DNA of 64,000 nt, taken from Escherichia coli (lineage in GTDB: Bacteria; Pseudomonadota; Gammaproteobacteria; Enterobacterales; Enterobacteriaceae). The notes under the pieces were generated by a model. The model was given only the letters and a program-made list of their open reading frames with translations. It did not search any database and was not told the origin of the DNA. Numbering within the stretch: the stretch's first letter is position 1; every line of letters begins with the position of its first letter. The stretch lies in the NCBI RefSeq assembly GCF_003334305.1, contig NZ_QOWS01000010.1. The stretch is one strand, 5' to 3'. The translations under genes were made by a program, and so were the position numbers. Shown one piece after another: positions 1 to 46,611 of the stretch.

Positions 1-2972
1 AACACCAGGCGGTGCTGGCTGTCGTAGTGGTAGTGGTGGGTCCGCTCGTCGTCCGTCCGTATCACACCCGTCGGGATACGGTCCGTCTTCTCCGTCAGTC
101 TGCCGTATTCATCATAGTGGTAAACATAGTGCGCATCCTCTGCGATGCGGTTATCCGGCCACACTGTGAGTGTACTGTCCGGGTGCAGCTCCGGGTCCGG
201 CAGCCGGTTGCCCGCCGGGTCCGTGGCATACGGGATGCGGATGTCCAGGTCTGGTGCGAGGGTGCGCACACTCTCCAGCCTGCCCGTGGCGCTGTAGCCG
301 TATTCCCGCGTCTGTCGCGGGCCGCTGATGCGCACCAGGTCGCCGTTGTCACTCCACCCGTAGTCACGGTCATATACCAGGCTGTTCAGGTGCTGGCTCT
401 GTAACTGGCCTGCGGGGGTGTATGTGCTGGTCAGTTCGTATGCGGCATTACTGCCTGCCATGCTGCCGAAGCTGCGCACCGTCTCACGGTGCAGCCTGTC
501 CCGCGTATACTCGACCAGCGGCGTCCCGCCCAGCTTCATGCCCGCCAGGTAACCGCTGCCGTAGGTCAGCCACTCCACCGGCGGCAGGCTGTCCGGCGTG
601 ACGCGGTTTGCCAGCCCCTGTTCGTTGTAGGCGTGTTTCGTCTCATGCTGCCACAGCAGTTCCCCCGTCTCCGGGTTCTCCACCGTCTGCCGTTCGCCCG
701 TCAGGCGGCCCTTATCGTCGTAGCCGTAGTGGACAGCGACACGGTGGCCTTCGCTCAGGTGGCTGATTTCTCTCAGCCAGCCGTGGCCGTCATACTGCCA
801 CTGCTCTGCCGGGTCGCCGTTCACCGTCCGGTGCGTGATGCGGTCCGACGCATCGTAGTGCCAGAGGGTGACAAGCCCCTCATCTTCACTCTGCGTGAGT
901 TTTCCGGTCAGGTCATAATGATAACGTTGCGTCCGCCCGTCAAAGCCGCCCTGCTGTACCAACCGGTCCAGCGCATCGTAGCTGAAGTCGCTGTGACTGC
1001 CGTTCTCGTTAGTCAGACTGATGACACGTCCGGCAGCATCGTATTCCATGCTGCGCGTCAGCCCGCCCTGCGTGGTGCTGACCGCCTTTCCCCACGCATC
1101 GTACTGTGTCTCGCTCCGGTTGCCGTCCGGGGTGATAACGGCAGTCAGGTCGCCTGCGGCGTTGTACTCATACTGCGTTTCACGGCCCTGTGCGTCTTTC
1201 ACCGAGGTTAACCGGCCACGGTTGTCATAGTGGCGGTAAAGGCTGATACCTTCCTCGCGGTGAACCGCCGTCATCTGGCCGAAGCGGTCGTATTCATAGC
1301 GGGTCTGGTAGCCCGAGCAGTCAGTGAACGCCAGCAACTGCCCGTAGCGGCTCCACGTCATCTGCCGGGTGCTGCCCGTCGCATCCGTTGTCGTCGCCGG
1401 TAACTCACTGTGCGCGTCATCGTAGCGGTAGCGTACTGTCTCCCCGCTGCGCGATGTCTCCGATACCAGCCTGCCCGGTTCATCATATTCCCGGCGGCTC
1501 TCCAGCCCGTCCGGGTACACCACCGCCGTCAGCTGGTTCCCGTCGTTATAGTAAAATTTCGTCTCCCGCCCGTCCGGTGTGGTGATGTCCGTGATATCGC
1601 CGGACACCACATTCAGACCGTACTCTGTCCGCCGTCCCGCCGCGTCCGTCTGCGCCGTGAGCCTTCCTGCCGCGTCATACCCGCTGTGCGTGACGCTGCC
1701 GTCCGCCAGTTCTTTTTTCACCACCCGCTTCAGCCCGGCCCCGCCTTCTGTATGCAGCACCTCACGCCGGTTCAGGCTGTCGGTGACGGTGATGCGGTCC
1801 TGCTCATACTGGTAGCGGTAACTCAGGCCTGCCGGGTTAAGTTGCTCCACCACCCGCCCCGCATCGTCGTAGCGGTAGCGCATCTCCGGCCTGCCTGCAT
1901 AACGGTGCCCCACCATCCGGCCCCGGTATTTATCATCGTAAGTAAAGTGGCGCATCTGCGTACCGCTGCGGTCATACACCGCCGCCAGCTCACCGCGTGG
2001 CGTCCAGTCGTAGCACACCAGTGGCGCGGCAGGTAAATTTTCCGGGTATTCCGGGTCGTGCATCAGCCACACCGCCGAAAGACGGATACCGCTGTCAGCG
2101 CCGTATTCCGTACCGGGCAGTGTGTCGGGGAAGGAAGGAGCTGAGAGAGGGCGGGGACTGTCAGGGGAAGATAACGAAGCGGTGTGCGGTTTACGGGCCT
2201 CTTCCGCCCGCTGTGCCTGTGTGGTCAGTACCAGACGGAACTCCCGCCCGGCACCGTCCGTCACGCCGGTGATTTCCCCGGCCAGGTCACCGGCGGCCTC
2301 ACGCCGGTACGCCAGCGTCCGTCCGAAGCGGTCCGCCATCCCGGTAAGCACCCGGTACGGCGGCAGCGGCGCTGGCAGTAAGTCCTCAGCACCCGGCACC
2401 CGCTCAGACCACCCCAGTATCCACCACGGCCCCTGTGCGCTGTTGGTCGCCAGGTAAAGATGCGGGCTTAACCGGATATCCGGCGGCAGCGCCCCCCACA
2501 GCCGCGCCAGCGTATGGCCGTCCGGCTGTGCTGCCTTACCACCGCGCACCAGCCACATTGACTCACTGCGGCTGTACACCGCCTCCCCCGGCAGCAGCGG
2601 CTCAAAGTGAATGCTCCGCCCGCCGTTGTCGTTGAGTACCAGTGCATCATCGCGTATCTGTAAGCGGATATCAGAAGGCGCTTTCCAGCCGGGGCCAAAA
2701 ATTCCCACCGGCGCAGGCGTCTTCGTCCGGTAGCTGCTGTAGGTGCGGGAGAGAATGAACAGCAGCGGGTCGGGCAGCGCAAGGTCCGTCTCGCCGGGCT
2801 GTACTTTTGCACCGAGCAGCGGGTTCACCGGGTTGCCCGAGGTCATCCCGCCCGGACACACCGAGCACGCCACGCCAGTTGGCGCGCCAATTCTTACACC
2901 TGCCGAACCCTGGACAATGGGACCGCCATACTGAGTCATATCTCCCTGACGCGCCGCTGGTTTTCCGCTCAT
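1..2972 (-). CDS. rhsD: Rhs-family polymorphic toxin core protein, N-terminal ~990 codons (partial; continues beyond window start)
   Basis: Reverse-strand translation from ATG (complement of 2970-2972) reads [57 protein letters not shown]..., the conserved Rhs N-terminus; frame stays open to position 1. Absent from ORF track because no stop codon lies in the window. Symbol inferred from K-12 synteny (downstream of ybbP). Confidence 0.9.
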
Positions 2973-3361
2973 ATAAAGTGCCCTTTTAGTTATTGTTCAT
3001 ATCCCTGTGTTAGCAACAAAAAAAATAAAATGACACACAAGACCAGCTAATGTATTTATATATTTTTCACATAAACTTATTTGTTCTCAATCAACAACAA
3101 CTGTTATTACAGGTCACTTTCAATATTTTATTAAACTAAAATTTTTAGCACAGATGAATTCATCATCAACAAATTCACTATATGGATAATATCCATTCAA
3201 CGCATATGATTTATGATTTTATTAGTCTGAGTTATTTTTGTAGGGCTATATTTAAAATTATTAAACTCCACCGATTCAGATTAATATCGCAATAGAAAGA
3301 TAGGAAATCACCAATTCAATAACATCATCAATGAAACATATTGTAGAATTAATTTAAACAA

Positions 3362-3385
3362 GGCGTTCCATTCAACCAGAACGCC
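3362..3385 (-). terminator. Probable intrinsic terminator downstream of ybbP
   Basis: Inverted repeat ggcgttc...gaacgcc immediately 3' of the ybbP stop, followed on the reverse strand by a T-rich stretch. Confidence 0.5.
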
Positions 3386-3400
3386 CCTTATTTACTCTCA

Positions 3401-5815
3401 TCACCCCGCAAACTGCCTGAACAGCGCCTTACCCTTAACCAGTCTCGCGCCCAGCCAGCCGCCGAAAAGCGACAGCAGCAGCGCACCGCTGCACGGCAGA
3501 ACAATCCACAATCGCCAGTCTGGCTCCCACGGGAAATCAAACACTTTCGCCTGCAACACTGCCAGCGCCGTTTCCGCACCAATTGCGGCTACCAGGCCAG
3601 AAACAAACCCAAGCATGGCGAACTCGCACCACAATGTCGTACGCAGCAGTTTTTTCCCCGCACCGAGTGTGCGCCACACCACCAGCTCCTGATGACGCTG
3701 ACGCATTCCCACCTGCACCTGTGCCAGCAACAGCAACATACCGCAGGCGGTGACCAGCACCACCATCACCTCCAGCGCCCGACTTACCTGCTCCAGCACC
3801 TGACCGACCTGTTTTAAAATCGCGCCAATGTCTAACAGGCTAATGGTAGGGAACTGGCGGTTGAGTTGTGTCAACATGCCGTTGCCATTCTCCCAGCGGA
3901 AACTGGTAAGCCAGCTCTGCGGTTGCCCGTCTAATGCCCCTTCAGGGAAAATAAAATAGAAATTAGGCCGCAGACTTTCCCAGTCCACTTTGCGCAGGCT
4001 GGTCACTTTAGCGCGGAACTCCTGGGTATCGCCCATAAAAGTCACGGTATCACCGAGGGCAACGTTTAAGCGTTTCGCCAGCCCCTCTTCCATCGACACT
4101 TCATCGGCTTTTGGCGGCCAGTTACCGGCGACAATCGGATTATGATCGGGTCGCGTATTTTGCCAGGTAAGATTGAGTTCGCGGTTAAGCGCCTCATCTT
4201 CATTACCTTCTGTCGGCTTATCGTTAATCGCCGTCAGCCGCGCCCGCACTACCGGATAAAATGATTCCGGGACTATCTGATGTTCCGCGAGGAACGCTTT
4301 TAGCGGTTCTACCTGTTCTGTGGCAATGTTAATTAAAAAGTAGTTCGGGCTTTCTGGAGGTAGCTGCTGCTGCCAGCGGTCAAGCAGATCGCCACGCAAT
4401 ACCAGCAACAGCGCCAGCAGCATAAAGGAGAGCGAAAATGCCGAAAGCTGGCTTAATGTTGACCACGGCTGACGTAACAGGCGGCTAACCGCCAGGCGCA
4501 GAGGTAGCGATTTCAGCGTCATGCGGCGAAGTACATTCAGCATCATCCAGCCCAGCACACCGCACAGCAAAGCCAGTACTACCGCGCCCGCCAGCACCGC
4601 CCAAAGCAGCATGCTGCCACCCATTAATCCGGCGAGCAGCAGCACAACCACCACACTGACAATCGGCAGATAAAACTTCAGCGGCCAGACGTTCGCGACC
4701 ACATCATTACGTAATACGCGTAAAGGCTGCGTTGCCAGCAACAAGCGGTACGGTCGTAGCCCCACCAGCAGCGAGATAACCGTCATGGTGCCCAGCGCCC
4801 ATAGCCACGGCCAGAGGCTGGCTGGCGGTAGTGCAGCAGGCAGAACGGGCTTGAGCAGCACCATCAACACGTTTTCGAACAACAGGCCTATCGCCCCACC
4901 GGTAACGGCTGAAAGCGCCAGCACCAGCAACCACTGACCGACGATTAGCTTACGCAGTTGCGCTCGCCCTGCCCCCAGCGTTTTGAGGATCGCCACCAGA
5001 TCGTAGCGACTGCGACAGTAATGATTCATCGCTACCGCCACTGCTGCCACTGCCAGCAGCAAGGTCAGAAGCGCCGAAAGCAGCAGGAACTGTTGCGAGC
5101 GTTCCATCGATCGCCCCAGCGCGCCTTCGTCCTGTTCCAGACCGTACCAGCGTTGTTCGGGTTTAAGCTGGGGTAACAACCATTTCTCATAGCCGTCGAG
5201 CTGGTTCTCGTTGCCGCCGAATTTATAACGCCAGGTGACCCGACTCCCCGGCTGCACGGCTCCGGTTTTATCGACATCCGCCAGATTCATCATCAGACGC
5301 GGAGCCATCTGGAAGGGGTTAAAACCGGAATCCGGTTCCTGAATCACTTCTCCGGCAATCCGCAAGGTGGCATCGCCCACGTCAATGGTGTCGCCCGTTT
5401 TCAGGTTAAGCAGCGCCATCAGGCGTGGGGCCAGCAATACGCTGCCCGCCTGCGGTTTCAGGCCAGGGGGATTAGTTTGCAGATCGCCATACATCGGGTA
5501 GATATCATCCACCGCTTTGACGTTCGCCAGCTGCGGTGTGTCGCCTGCAAATGTCATGGTGGCGAAAGTCAGCTGCTTGCCGACTTTCAGGCCGCGCTTT
5601 TGCGCTTCCTCCAGCCATGCTTGCGGCACTTCGCGCGAACTGCGCAACGCCCGATCGCCCGCCATAAACTCCCGGCTTTGTTGGCTTAAGCCCTTCTCCA
5701 TGCGATCGCTGATATTGCCCAGCGCCAGCACGCAGGCCACCGCCAGGCTTAGCGCCAGCCAGACAATTAATAGCGACGGCGAACGCCATTCGCGCCAGAA
5801 CCAACGTGCAATCAT
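3401..5815 (-). CDS. ybbP: ABC transporter permease, FtsX-like (LolE/MacB-type), 804 aa
   Basis: ORF track 3401..5815 (-), 804 aa, multi-TM; 4-nt overlap with the upstream ATPase gene ybbA. Confidence 0.95.
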   Translation of the reverse strand: MIARWFWREWRSPSLLIVWLALSLAVACVLALGNISDRMEKGLSQQSREFMAGDRALRSSREVPQAWLEEAQKRGLKVGKQLTFATMTFAGDTPQLANVKAVDDIYPMYGDLQTNPPGLKPQAGSVLLAPRLMALLNLKTGDTIDVGDATLRIAGEVIQEPDSGFNPFQMAPRLMMNLADVDKTGAVQPGSRVTWRYKFGGNENQLDGYEKWLLPQLKPEQRWYGLEQDEGALGRSMERSQQFLLLSALLTLLLAVAAVAVAMNHYCRSRYDLVAILKTLGAGRAQLRKLIVGQWLLVLALSAVTGGAIGLLFENVLMVLLKPVLPAALPPASLWPWLWALGTMTVISLLVGLRPYRLLLATQPLRVLRNDVVANVWPLKFYLPIVSVVVVLLLAGLMGGSMLLWAVLAGAVVLALLCGVLGWMMLNVLRRMTLKSLPLRLAVSRLLRQPWSTLSQLSAFSLSFMLLALLLVLRGDLLDRWQQQLPPESPNYFLINIATEQVEPLKAFLAEHQIVPESFYPVVRARLTAINDKPTEGNEDEALNRELNLTWQNTRPDHNPIVAGNWPPKADEVSMEEGLAKRLNVALGDTVTFMGDTQEFRAKVTSLRKVDWESLRPNFYFIFPEGALDGQPQSWLTSFRWENGNGMLTQLNRQFPTISLLDIGAILKQVGQVLEQVSRALEVMVVLVTACGMLLLLAQVQVGMRQRHQELVVWRTLGAGKKLLRTTLWCEFAMLGFVSGLVAAIGAETALAVLQAKVFDFPWEPDWRLWIVLPCSGALLLSLFGGWLGARLVKGKALFRQFAG

Positions 5816-41572: not shown

Positions 41573-44725
<3,153 letters not shown>

Positions 44726-44742
44726 TACAACGTGTAATCACT

Positions 44743-44768
44743 AAGGCCGCGCAAGCGGCCTTTTTTAT
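44743..44768 (+). terminator. Intrinsic terminator of acrAB
   Basis: aaggccgc-gcaa-gcggcctt hairpin followed by TTTTTTAT, 18 nt after the acrB stop. Confidence 0.85.
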
Positions 44769-45270
44769 GCATAACCTACGAACATTAAGGAGTAATTGAA
44801 CCACCAACTCAGGATCTCATACGAAAACCAGTATTAACCACGGATAAAATTCATAAAAAATACTGATTGTTAGTTAATTTATATTAAGTAGCGCTAATAG
44901 ATTTAATAATCCATAATCATTTAGAGGCTATTCTTAATTATTTGCGGTAATTCTTTATTCATTCCTCGGTTATTACGTCATATTCAGAGCAATCCTGGTA
45001 TTAGTGTCACCAATTTCATCTGGCGATAATCCTGAAATGTTATGAACAGTTCGAGCAGACTGCTTTTACCTGCTGCGGGTTAGTGCTAGTATGAAAAAGT
45101 GAGTCCTGTCCCGATTCCTTCCTAATTGTAATTTTTCGTAATAATGCGATGAAAACCTGCAAAGAGTGGCTTATAGTTAAGCTAACAAACGAGAGGGCAA
45201 GTCCAGGTCAGTAAGTTTTTTCCATCCCGAAAGGTGTCCGTTAGTTCAACCGCTAAGAAGGGGACGCGTT

Positions 45271-45645
45271 ATGGATGAATACTCACCCAAAAGACATGAT
45301 ATCGCACAGCTTAAGTTTCTCTGTGAAACCCTGTATCATGACTGCCTTGCAAACCTTGAAGAAAGCAATCATGGCTGGGTTAACGACCCAACCTCGGCGA
45401 TCAACCTCCAGTTGAATGAACTGATTGAGCATATTGCGACCTTCGCACTTAATTACAAAATTAAGTATAATGAAGACAATAAGCTCATTGAGCAGATCGA
45501 CGAATATCTGGATGACACCTTTATGTTGTTCAGTAGTTATGGTATTAATATGCAGGATCTTCAGAAATGGCGGAAGTCAGGTAATCGACTATTCCGTTGT
45601 TTTGTCAATGCGACGAAAGAGAATCCTGCGAGTTTATCTTGTTAG
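45271..45645 (+). CDS. tomB: Hha toxicity modulator TomB (YbaJ), 124 aa
   Basis: ORF track; SD aagaagggga; recognised TomB sequence. Confidence 0.93.
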
Positions 45646-45670
45646 AATTATTACAACCATGGGTAGAAGT

Positions 45671-45889
45671 ATGTCCGAAAAACCTTTAACGAAAACCGAT
45701 TATTTAATGCGTTTACGTCGTTGCCAGACAATTGACACGCTGGAGCGTGTTATCGAGAAAAATAAATACGAATTATCAGATAATGAACTGGCGGTATTTT
45801 ACTCAGCCGCAGATCACCGCCTCGCCGAATTGACCATGAATAAACTATACGACAAGATCCCTTCCTCAGTATGGAAATTTATTCGCTAA
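45671..45889 (+). CDS. hha: Hha (haemolysin expression modulator; H-NS co-regulator), 72 aa
   Basis: Inside track ORF 45425..45889; start at [27 protein letters not shown] (ATG 45671), 25 nt after the tomB stop. Confidence 0.93.
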
Positions 45890-46059
45890 TAAATAATTCG
45901 CTTTCGGAGCTATAACCGGCTGTTTATTAAGAATTTTATACTTTTCACCATGAAGACATACCCTATGTGATCTTTATCACACAGATGTAATGGGAACGTT
46001 CTCTTCACTGACTTTTCGTCTTACTGTGTTGCCGCATTTTCAGCAACCGGAGGTCAGTA

Positions 46060-46611
46060 ATGAGCACAGAAAAAGAAAAGATGATTGCTGGTGAGTTGTA
46101 TCGCTCGGCAGATGAGACGTTATCTCGCGATCGCCTGCGCGCTCGTCAGCTTATTCACCGATACAATCATTCCCTGGCGGAAGAGCACACATTACGCCAG
46201 CAAATTCTCGCTGATCTATTCGGTCAGGTGACAGAGGCTTATATTGAGCCAACGTTTCGCTGTGACTATGGCTATAACATTTTTCTCGGTAATAATTTTT
46301 TCGCCAACTTCGATTGCGTGATGCTTGATGTCTGCCCTATTCGCATCGGTGATAACTGTATGTTGGCACCAGGCGTTCATATCTACACGGCAACACATCC
46401 CATCGACCCTGTAGCACGTAATAGCGGTGCTGAACTGGGGAAACCCGTCACCATCGGTAATAACGTCTGGATTGGCGGACGCGCGGTCATTAACCCTGGT
46501 GTGACCATTGGTGATAACGTCGTGGTAGCCTCAGGTGCAGTTGTCACAAAAGATGTCCCGGACAACGTTGTCGTGGGCGGTAATCCAGCCAGAATAATTA
46601 AAAAATTGTAA
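46060..46611 (+). CDS. maa: Maltose O-acetyltransferase (hexapeptide-repeat), 183 aa
   Basis: ORF track; left-handed beta-helix hexapeptide repeats ([25 protein letters not shown]). Confidence 0.95.

Follow-up and report, generated by a model that had tools for sequence, protein, structure and literature searches.

What does the long AT-rich stretch in front of the tomB-hha gene pair of Escherichia coli do? Some 500 bp without an obvious gene separate this pair from the end of acrB, and such DNA could be a transcribed leader, a binding platform for H-NS or for other regulators, the site of an overlooked gene, or a spacer of no consequence. Because the level of Hha sets the strength with which H-NS silences virulence and foreign genes, the control of that level is of real interest. 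We addressed the question in a window of 64,000 nt of E. coli DNA (the whole stretch analysed), using promoter, terminator and RNA-family scans, published regulatory data and a comparison set in which the locus was taken from 80 Enterobacteriaceae species and the spacer was aligned from 73 of them.

The locus and the constraint on its spacer

The locus is the chromosomal tomB-hha operon of E. coli, and as such is ordinary and already known. The genes run in the order acrB, spacer, tomB, hha and then maa (Table 1), and the RefSeq gene names for tomB and hha agree with this assignment. A stretch of 1251 bp around the locus is present, at 95-100% identity and with acrB, tomB and hha annotated, in 5425 of 5426 complete E. 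coli genomes, and the sequence is 100% identical to that of strain 165. The coordinates, the gene sizes and the 25-nt distance between tomB and hha given in the original prediction are all borne out by the list of open reading frames and by the terminator scan. The acrB-tomB spacer measures 545 bp, 502 bp of which (44769-45270) lie after the acrB terminator; in the scan, the terminator hairpin occupies 44743-44762 and is followed by TTTTTTAT.

Table 1. Features of the acrB-tomB-hha locus, in window coordinates
Feature	Position	Strand	Remarks
acrB ORF	41576-44725		gene upstream of the spacer
acrB terminator	44743-44768	+	intrinsic; 8-bp GC-rich stem, 4-nt loop, T run; from terminator scan
Escherichia-only segment	44769-44845		~77 bp; single-copy, no conserved position
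AT-rich core	44846-44983		~24% GC; candidate H-NS-coated DNA
RcsB/RcsAB-box-like site TCAGAGCAATCCTG	44984-44997		GA-N4-TC core
Conserved island	45035-45045		~250 nt upstream of tomB
Invariant TTGTAATTTTTCGTAATA	45126-45143	+	holds GTAAT-N5-GTAAT at 45128-45142; CpxR-box-like
Core promoter ATGAAA-17-TATAGT	45149-45177	+	-35 at 45149-45154, -10 at 45172-45177; from promoter scan
Predicted 5' UTR	45184-45270	+	~87 nt; start placed 7 nt after the -10
Invariant CCATCCC	45223-45229	+	within the predicted 5' UTR
Shine-Dalgarno AAGGGGA	45258-45264	+	within the predicted 5' UTR
tomB (ybaJ)	45271-45645	+	124 aa; modulator of Hha toxicity
tomB-hha gap	45646-45670		25 nt
hha	45671-45889	+	72 aa; H-NS-binding co-silencer

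Two observations concern the edges of the operon. In NZ_CP182371.1 (E. coli strain Br_112_kylling; locus 4007-4040), a deletion has removed the 3' end of acrB, the spacer, tomB and the first hha codons, and a 60-aa hha ORF is retained without its tomB partner; the deletion may be genuine or an assembly artefact. At the other end, the terminator scan of the hha-maa region found no clear plus-strand terminator for hha, and a 10-bp palindromic hairpin between hha and maa (CCTATGTGATCTTTATCACACAGA; 45962-45985) scored as terminator-like on the minus strand only.

That about 500 bp of AT-rich DNA devoid of long reading frames precedes tomB, as first noticed from the letters of the window, is real. 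The GC content of 44769-45270 is 37.5%, against 52.8% for the window, which places it among the lowest 0.66% of 502-bp windows; expressed as AT, it amounts to 62.5% over the 502 bp and 76% over a 140-bp core. The density of TpA steps in the AT-rich core is 0.157, compared with 0.042 for the window. The genes themselves are also AT-rich, at 40.5% GC for tomB and 40.2% for hha. No ORF of at least 60 aa occurs in the spacer: the minus strand reaches 40 aa at most and the plus strand 21 aa. Little can be read into this lack of a long ORF, since stop codons are frequent in AT-rich DNA. Elsewhere in the window, a single 502-bp stretch exceeds the tomB upstream region in AT content, namely 2911-3412, the most AT-rich of all (32% GC).

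The spacer is long throughout the relatives of E. coli (435-559 bp in 73 species), and 87 of its 545 positions are at least 95% conserved across those species. By this criterion, the acrB terminator has 17 conserved positions out of 26, the block 45126-45183 has 33 out of 58, the predicted 5' UTR has 19 out of 87 and the RcsB-like site has five out of 14; the rest of the spacer contributes just eight of 343, and the AT-rich core has two conserved positions out of 138. The adjoining hha-maa spacer, which served as a control, has none among its 170 positions and varies in length from 65 to 214 bp. As judged from this alignment, constraint is concentrated in the terminator, the CpxR-box-like repeat, the core promoter and the predicted 5' UTR, plus a small RcsB-box-like island.

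The proximal promoter and its CpxR-box-like repeat

The hexamers ATGAAA-17-TATAGT have been described as the constitutive sigma-70 promoter of tomB-hha (Shimada 2014, PMC3946193), and our promoter scan chose the same hexamers independently. The -10 element TATAGT is invariant in all 73 species at a fixed distance from the tomB ATG, and the -35 hexamer reads either ATGAAA or GTGAAA in every one of them. After coordinate conversion with a 776-bp offset, a sigma-S RNA polymerase ChIP peak assigned to tomB spans this promoter. A reporter fragment spanning -198 to -1 relative to the start codon, the forward primer of which maps to 45071-45090, drives GFP and is repressed by Hha (Garcia-Contreras 2008, PMC2408971). 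In Salmonella, only the proximal one of three predicted tomB promoters is active, and TomB shifted the proximal promoter fragment in EMSA.

Since a limited literature search retrieved no start site mapped by experiment for tomB in E. coli, the start near 45184 is a prediction, placed by the position of the -10 element. A second line of reasoning comes from Yersinia pseudotuberculosis, where the ymoBA promoter has a binding site for CpxR~P that lies 56 bp upstream of a mapped start, TSS2. The distance from 45128, where the CpxR-box-like repeat begins, to 45184 is also 56 bp, and this match in offset likewise puts the predicted start near 45184, with about 87 nt of 5' UTR. Among all species aligned, the predicted 5' UTR is 81-101 nt long.

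Taken with the activity of the -198 to -1 fragment, the position of the promoter leaves only about 87 nt as predicted transcript. The original prediction had called the whole 500 bp a leader, and that term is wrong: the promoter lies 94-122 nt from the ATG, and the remaining ~350 bp are upstream DNA. The finding named in advance as contradicting it was a promoter directly beside the ATG, with silent and unbound DNA above it; the promoter is indeed near the ATG, but the DNA upstream is not unbound in vitro.

The midpoint of the CpxR-box-like repeat precedes the predicted start by about 49 nt, and the core of the repeat, TGTAATTTTTC, is found in 73 of 73 species at a fixed distance from the tomB ATG. 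Compared with GTAAA-N5-GTAAA, the CpxR box consensus, GTAAT-N5-GTAAT has two mismatches, a count that alone is not above chance in the window. The CpxR regulon of RegulonDB includes both tomB and hha and the CpxR iModulon includes tomB; tomB is not among the direct targets identified by CpxR ChIP-exo (Choudhary 2020). When lipoprotein transport is blocked by a LolCDE inhibitor, tomB rises 6- to 11-fold, and the same table lists cpxP, other Cpx-linked genes, rcsA and colanic-acid genes as induced too. Envelope-stress control of tomB-hha and its membership of the CpxR regulon are already published. The sole perfect match to GTAAA-N5-GTAAA in the window lies far from this locus, on the minus strand of the divergent glsA-copA spacer (14747-14761; GTAAAAGTCCGTAAA).

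The 25-nt gap between tomB and hha holds no terminator-like site, which is consistent with an operon, and the two genes were called one operon in PMC2408971. A promoter-like site inside tomB could nevertheless serve hha alone. This site, TTCGCA-18-TATAAT (45442-45471, plus strand; 10 of 12 matches), is the best promoter-like site of the region and lies about 200 nt upstream of hha, which it could transcribe without tomB. Published lists of RNA polymerase binding also have entries for hha and for the interior of tomB (Shimada 2014, PMC3946193, and 2017).

The predicted 5' UTR gave little sign of structure. RNAalifold, applied to 74 sequences, returned four invariant pairs, in which CCC pairs with the GGGG of the Shine-Dalgarno sequence, at -2.4 kcal/mol, and detected no covariation; the E. 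coli 5' UTR folds no better than its shuffles (z = -0.12). A paired change between Escherichia (GTCC/GGAC) and other genera (GTTC/GGAT) was dropped as a single event. The invariant CCATCCC is complementary to the Shine-Dalgarno region, which reads GGGGAT in most genera and GGGGAC in E. coli; this pairing is beyond the reach of a covariation test because both of its sides are invariant. A permissive Rfam search of 44000-46500 gave only a sub-threshold Trp_leader match on the acrB terminator. Neither an sRNA nor a conserved small ORF or RNA structure was detected in the spacer.

The distal spacer and its possible roles

Low GC content is a shared property of the distal spacer, with a median of 34% and a range of 30-39.5% in 73 of 73 species, against ~56% for the 3' end of acrB. 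Such conserved composition fits selection on composition itself, as for H-NS-coated or curved DNA, without proving it. The table of H-NS sites that bears on this region was reportedly obtained by in vitro genomic SELEX. It assigns an H-NS site to the tomB-acrB spacer (Shimada 2014, PMC3946193), and the chromosomal binding of Hha depends on H-NS/StpA (Ueda 2013). A limited literature search found no in vivo H-NS ChIP record for the spacer. At two mismatches or fewer, 44769-45125 contains no match to TCGATAAATT, the consensus of the high-affinity H-NS nucleation motif; the only match within the spacer overlaps the CpxR-like box. Phasing of A-tracts at 10-11 bp is also absent from the distal spacer, which has too few A or T tracts. 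The suggestion that the pair is itself under H-NS control, made on the grounds of AT content, therefore stands in part: an H-NS site in the spacer is published, but the high-affinity motif is missing from the AT-rich part. The AT-rich core is also missing from the Hha-responsive -198 to -1 fragment, so autoregulation needs no distal DNA. Control of the spacer by PdhR was considered and rejected, as the 2020 gSELEX peak is weak, lies inside the 3' end of acrB and has an 8-of-14 box.

The first segment after the terminator, 44769-44845, falls opposite gaps in the alignment for about 90% of the other genera. It is more polymorphic within E. coli than the remaining locus, with 785 genomes just 90-95% identical, and an origin as a mobile element was rejected, the segment being single-copy in every genome. 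The plus strand of this Escherichia-only segment also has, at 44787-44837, an AAGGAG that strongly resembles a Shine-Dalgarno sequence and, after another 3 nt, a TTG ORF of 13 codons (44796-44837); the combination is probably a chance match.

Beyond the AT-rich core lies the RcsB-like site, the GA-N4-TC core of which does not vary in any of the 73 species, E. coli among them. Most genera read TAAGAATATTCCTGG or TTAGGAATATTCCTAA, always 306-334 nt upstream of the tomB ATG. At two mismatches or fewer, TAAGAATATTCCTA, the RcsAB box consensus, a string that also occurs in a paper using the term RcsAB box, is matched in 50 of 73 species, against 0.8% of shuffled spacers; this palindrome is near-perfect in most other genera, and the E. 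coli site has five mismatches to it, which equals the chance level. The island at 45035-45045 reads TAA-N4-6-ATGA in most genera, followed by AAGG, and E. coli keeps ATGA only. About half of the genera have a perfect TATAAT at a distance of 380-409 nt upstream of the tomB ATG, and this element is degenerate in Escherichia.

These elements raise a possibility that we regard as doubtful: the distal spacer may be what is left of a second regulatory module found across the Enterobacteriaceae, centred on an RcsB/RcsAB-type site that precedes the tomB start by about 190 bp and is partly decayed in Escherichia, and with Rcs acting on tomB-hha in most genera. Rcs signalling would then either counter H-NS silencing or drive a distal promoter, and the dosage of the H-NS partner Hha would be under both Cpx and Rcs control. 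A limited literature search, which did not extend to Rcs regulon studies, found no binding or expression data tying Rcs specifically to tomB, and a limited search on dual Cpx and Rcs control of tomB-hha found no paper reporting an Rcs link.

Our preferred reading, to which we give a probability of roughly 0.7, is that tomB-hha is transcribed from one compact proximal promoter and that the ~350 bp above it are AT-rich upstream DNA, a probable H-NS-coated feedback region. Transcription would begin at a single start near 45184, from the promoter close to tomB, with a 5' UTR of about 87 nt, and the CpxR-box-like repeat would tie the operon to envelope stress. The ~350 bp of AT-rich DNA would probably bear a nucleoprotein of H-NS (plus Hha/StpA) that damps the promoter, and such damping of tomB-hha would close a negative feedback loop via Hha. 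The short conserved islands, the RcsB-box-like site included, may be further regulator sites. Our data or published work establish which genes these are, where the promoter lies, that the proximal 198 bp are active and respond to Hha, that H-NS binds the spacer in vitro, and how conservation is distributed. The exact start, the occupancy by H-NS in vivo and the roles of the distal AT-rich DNA and of the RcsB-like site are what we infer.

It is also conceivable, though unlikely, that the distal ~350 bp are functionless in E. coli, a tolerated AT-rich spacer with all regulation confined to the proximal 150 bp. They would perhaps be what an earlier regulatory region left behind, or a trace of how an AT-rich tomB-hha module was acquired. 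An idle spacer would account for the mere 13 of 357 distal positions that are at least 95% conserved, for first 77 bp that are polymorphic and restricted to Escherichia, and for the degeneracy in E. coli, relative to other genera, of the RcsB-like box, the distal TATAAT and the 45035-45045 island; it also agrees with the sufficiency of the 198-bp fragment for activity and for Hha repression (PMC2408971). It does not explain why a length of 435-559 bp and a low GC content are kept in 73 of 73 species, unlike in the hha-maa spacer, nor why the GA-N4-TC core is invariant even in E. coli, and both an H-NS site and RNA polymerase binding in vitro have been reported for the spacer. Less probable again is a second, distal promoter producing a 5' UTR of 230-360 nt with control at the RNA level, which would make part of the region a true leader. 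The scan shows no plus-strand promoter-like site in the E. coli spacer upstream of 45149, the distal TATAAT is missing in Escherichia and Enterobacter, the spacer has no Rfam match, and the two upstream predicted promoters are inactive in Salmonella. Pointing the other way are a sigma-S holoenzyme SELEX peak at the distal (acrB) end of the spacer, the perfect TATAAT of about half of the genera, a GATAAT in E. coli at 45025-45030, downstream of the RcsB-like box, and the second, more distal, of two mapped start sites in Yersinia ymoBA.

We consider it very improbable that the spacer conceals an unannotated small protein gene or small RNA. Its length would leave room for one, and two short frames could be put forward, the 21-aa ORF at 45149-45214 and the 13-aa ORF preceded by AAGGAG. 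The former was rejected as a candidate, since it begins within the -35 hexamer and shrinks to about six codons in other genera; the latter sits in the Escherichia-only segment. No terminator-like site follows. The K-12 RefSeq annotation places no feature in the spacer, and Rfam is empty apart from the sub-threshold match on the acrB terminator.

The locus offers nothing new for E. coli: the proposals first made for it are already in the literature, and the toxin-antitoxin-like pair, Hha autorepression, the H-NS site in the spacer and CpxR regulon membership are all published. One useful outcome of our analysis is a correction, that the region is mostly upstream DNA rather than leader. The other is the comparative constraint map together with the RcsB-box-like island, both of which are modest additions.

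TomB, Hha and comparison with known systems

The identity of the two proteins is clear. TomB matches the Pfam family YbaJ (PF10757; E = 1.1e-65, residues 1-117) and also a solved structure of YmoB, and tomB lies directly upstream of hha in related loci as well. Hha matches the Pfam family HHA (PF05321; E = 9.5e-40, residues 13-69 of 72), and its full length matches chain 1jw2 and the 2mw2 deposit (E = 1.2e-44), the latter of which is a complex of Hha with H-NS. Judging by its identity to K-12 Hha, the Hha encoded here presumably binds H-NS at the N-terminal domain of the latter; it also has Cys18.

Pairs of the tomB-hha type are classed in reviews as type VII toxin-antitoxin systems. A toxin-antitoxin-like pairing of hha with tomB (then ybaJ) was argued for by Garcia-Contreras 2008 (PMC2408971) on the grounds of a single operon, the 25-bp spacing, the small size of the proteins, the toxicity of Hha and the repression by Hha of its own promoter; the same behaviour, proposed anew from the present sequence, had thus already been published on identical grounds. 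In Marimon 2016 (PMC5155140), TomB and YmoB are reported to promote the oxidation of a conserved Hha cysteine.

The closest known counterpart is the tomB-hha (ybaJ-hha) locus of E. coli K-12 MG1655, b0461-b0460. It likewise has the order acrB, tomB, hha, maa, its 545-bp acrB-tomB spacer and 25-nt tomB-hha gap equal those described here, and its TomB and Hha proteins are 100% identical to ours (Hha by tblastn). Apart from the strain and the orientation, which is reversed in the window, there is no substantive difference. A K-12 v3 coordinate is obtained by subtracting the window coordinate from 525,979, on the assumption that there are no indels, and the spacer then corresponds to K-12 480,709-481,253. 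The ymoB-ymoA locus of Yersinia encodes orthologous proteins (YmoB, 2mn2; YmoA, 2k5s). Compared from the literature, ymoBA differs in having an additional mapped start at -188 and a somewhat longer UTR, of 106 nt.

With toxin-antitoxin modules at large, tomB-hha shares two small adjacent genes with the antitoxin first, a toxin that is harmful when overproduced, and an autoregulated promoter. It departs from the usual modules in that the toxin, Hha, is a transcriptional co-regulator and in that one natural genome has hha but no tomB. Unlike the toxin of a stable toxin-antitoxin complex, Hha is reported to be neutralised by promoted oxidation (Marimon 2016).

Like the H-NS-silenced bgl, proU and hly regions, tomB has AT- and TpA-rich DNA upstream, a reported H-NS site and, as its repressor, the H-NS partner Hha. 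Unlike regions of the bgl, proU and hly type, the tomB spacer lacks the high-affinity H-NS motif, and the fragment that responds to Hha does not include the AT-rich core. Whereas foreign genes silenced by H-NS are silent, tomB-hha is an expressed pair of core genes.
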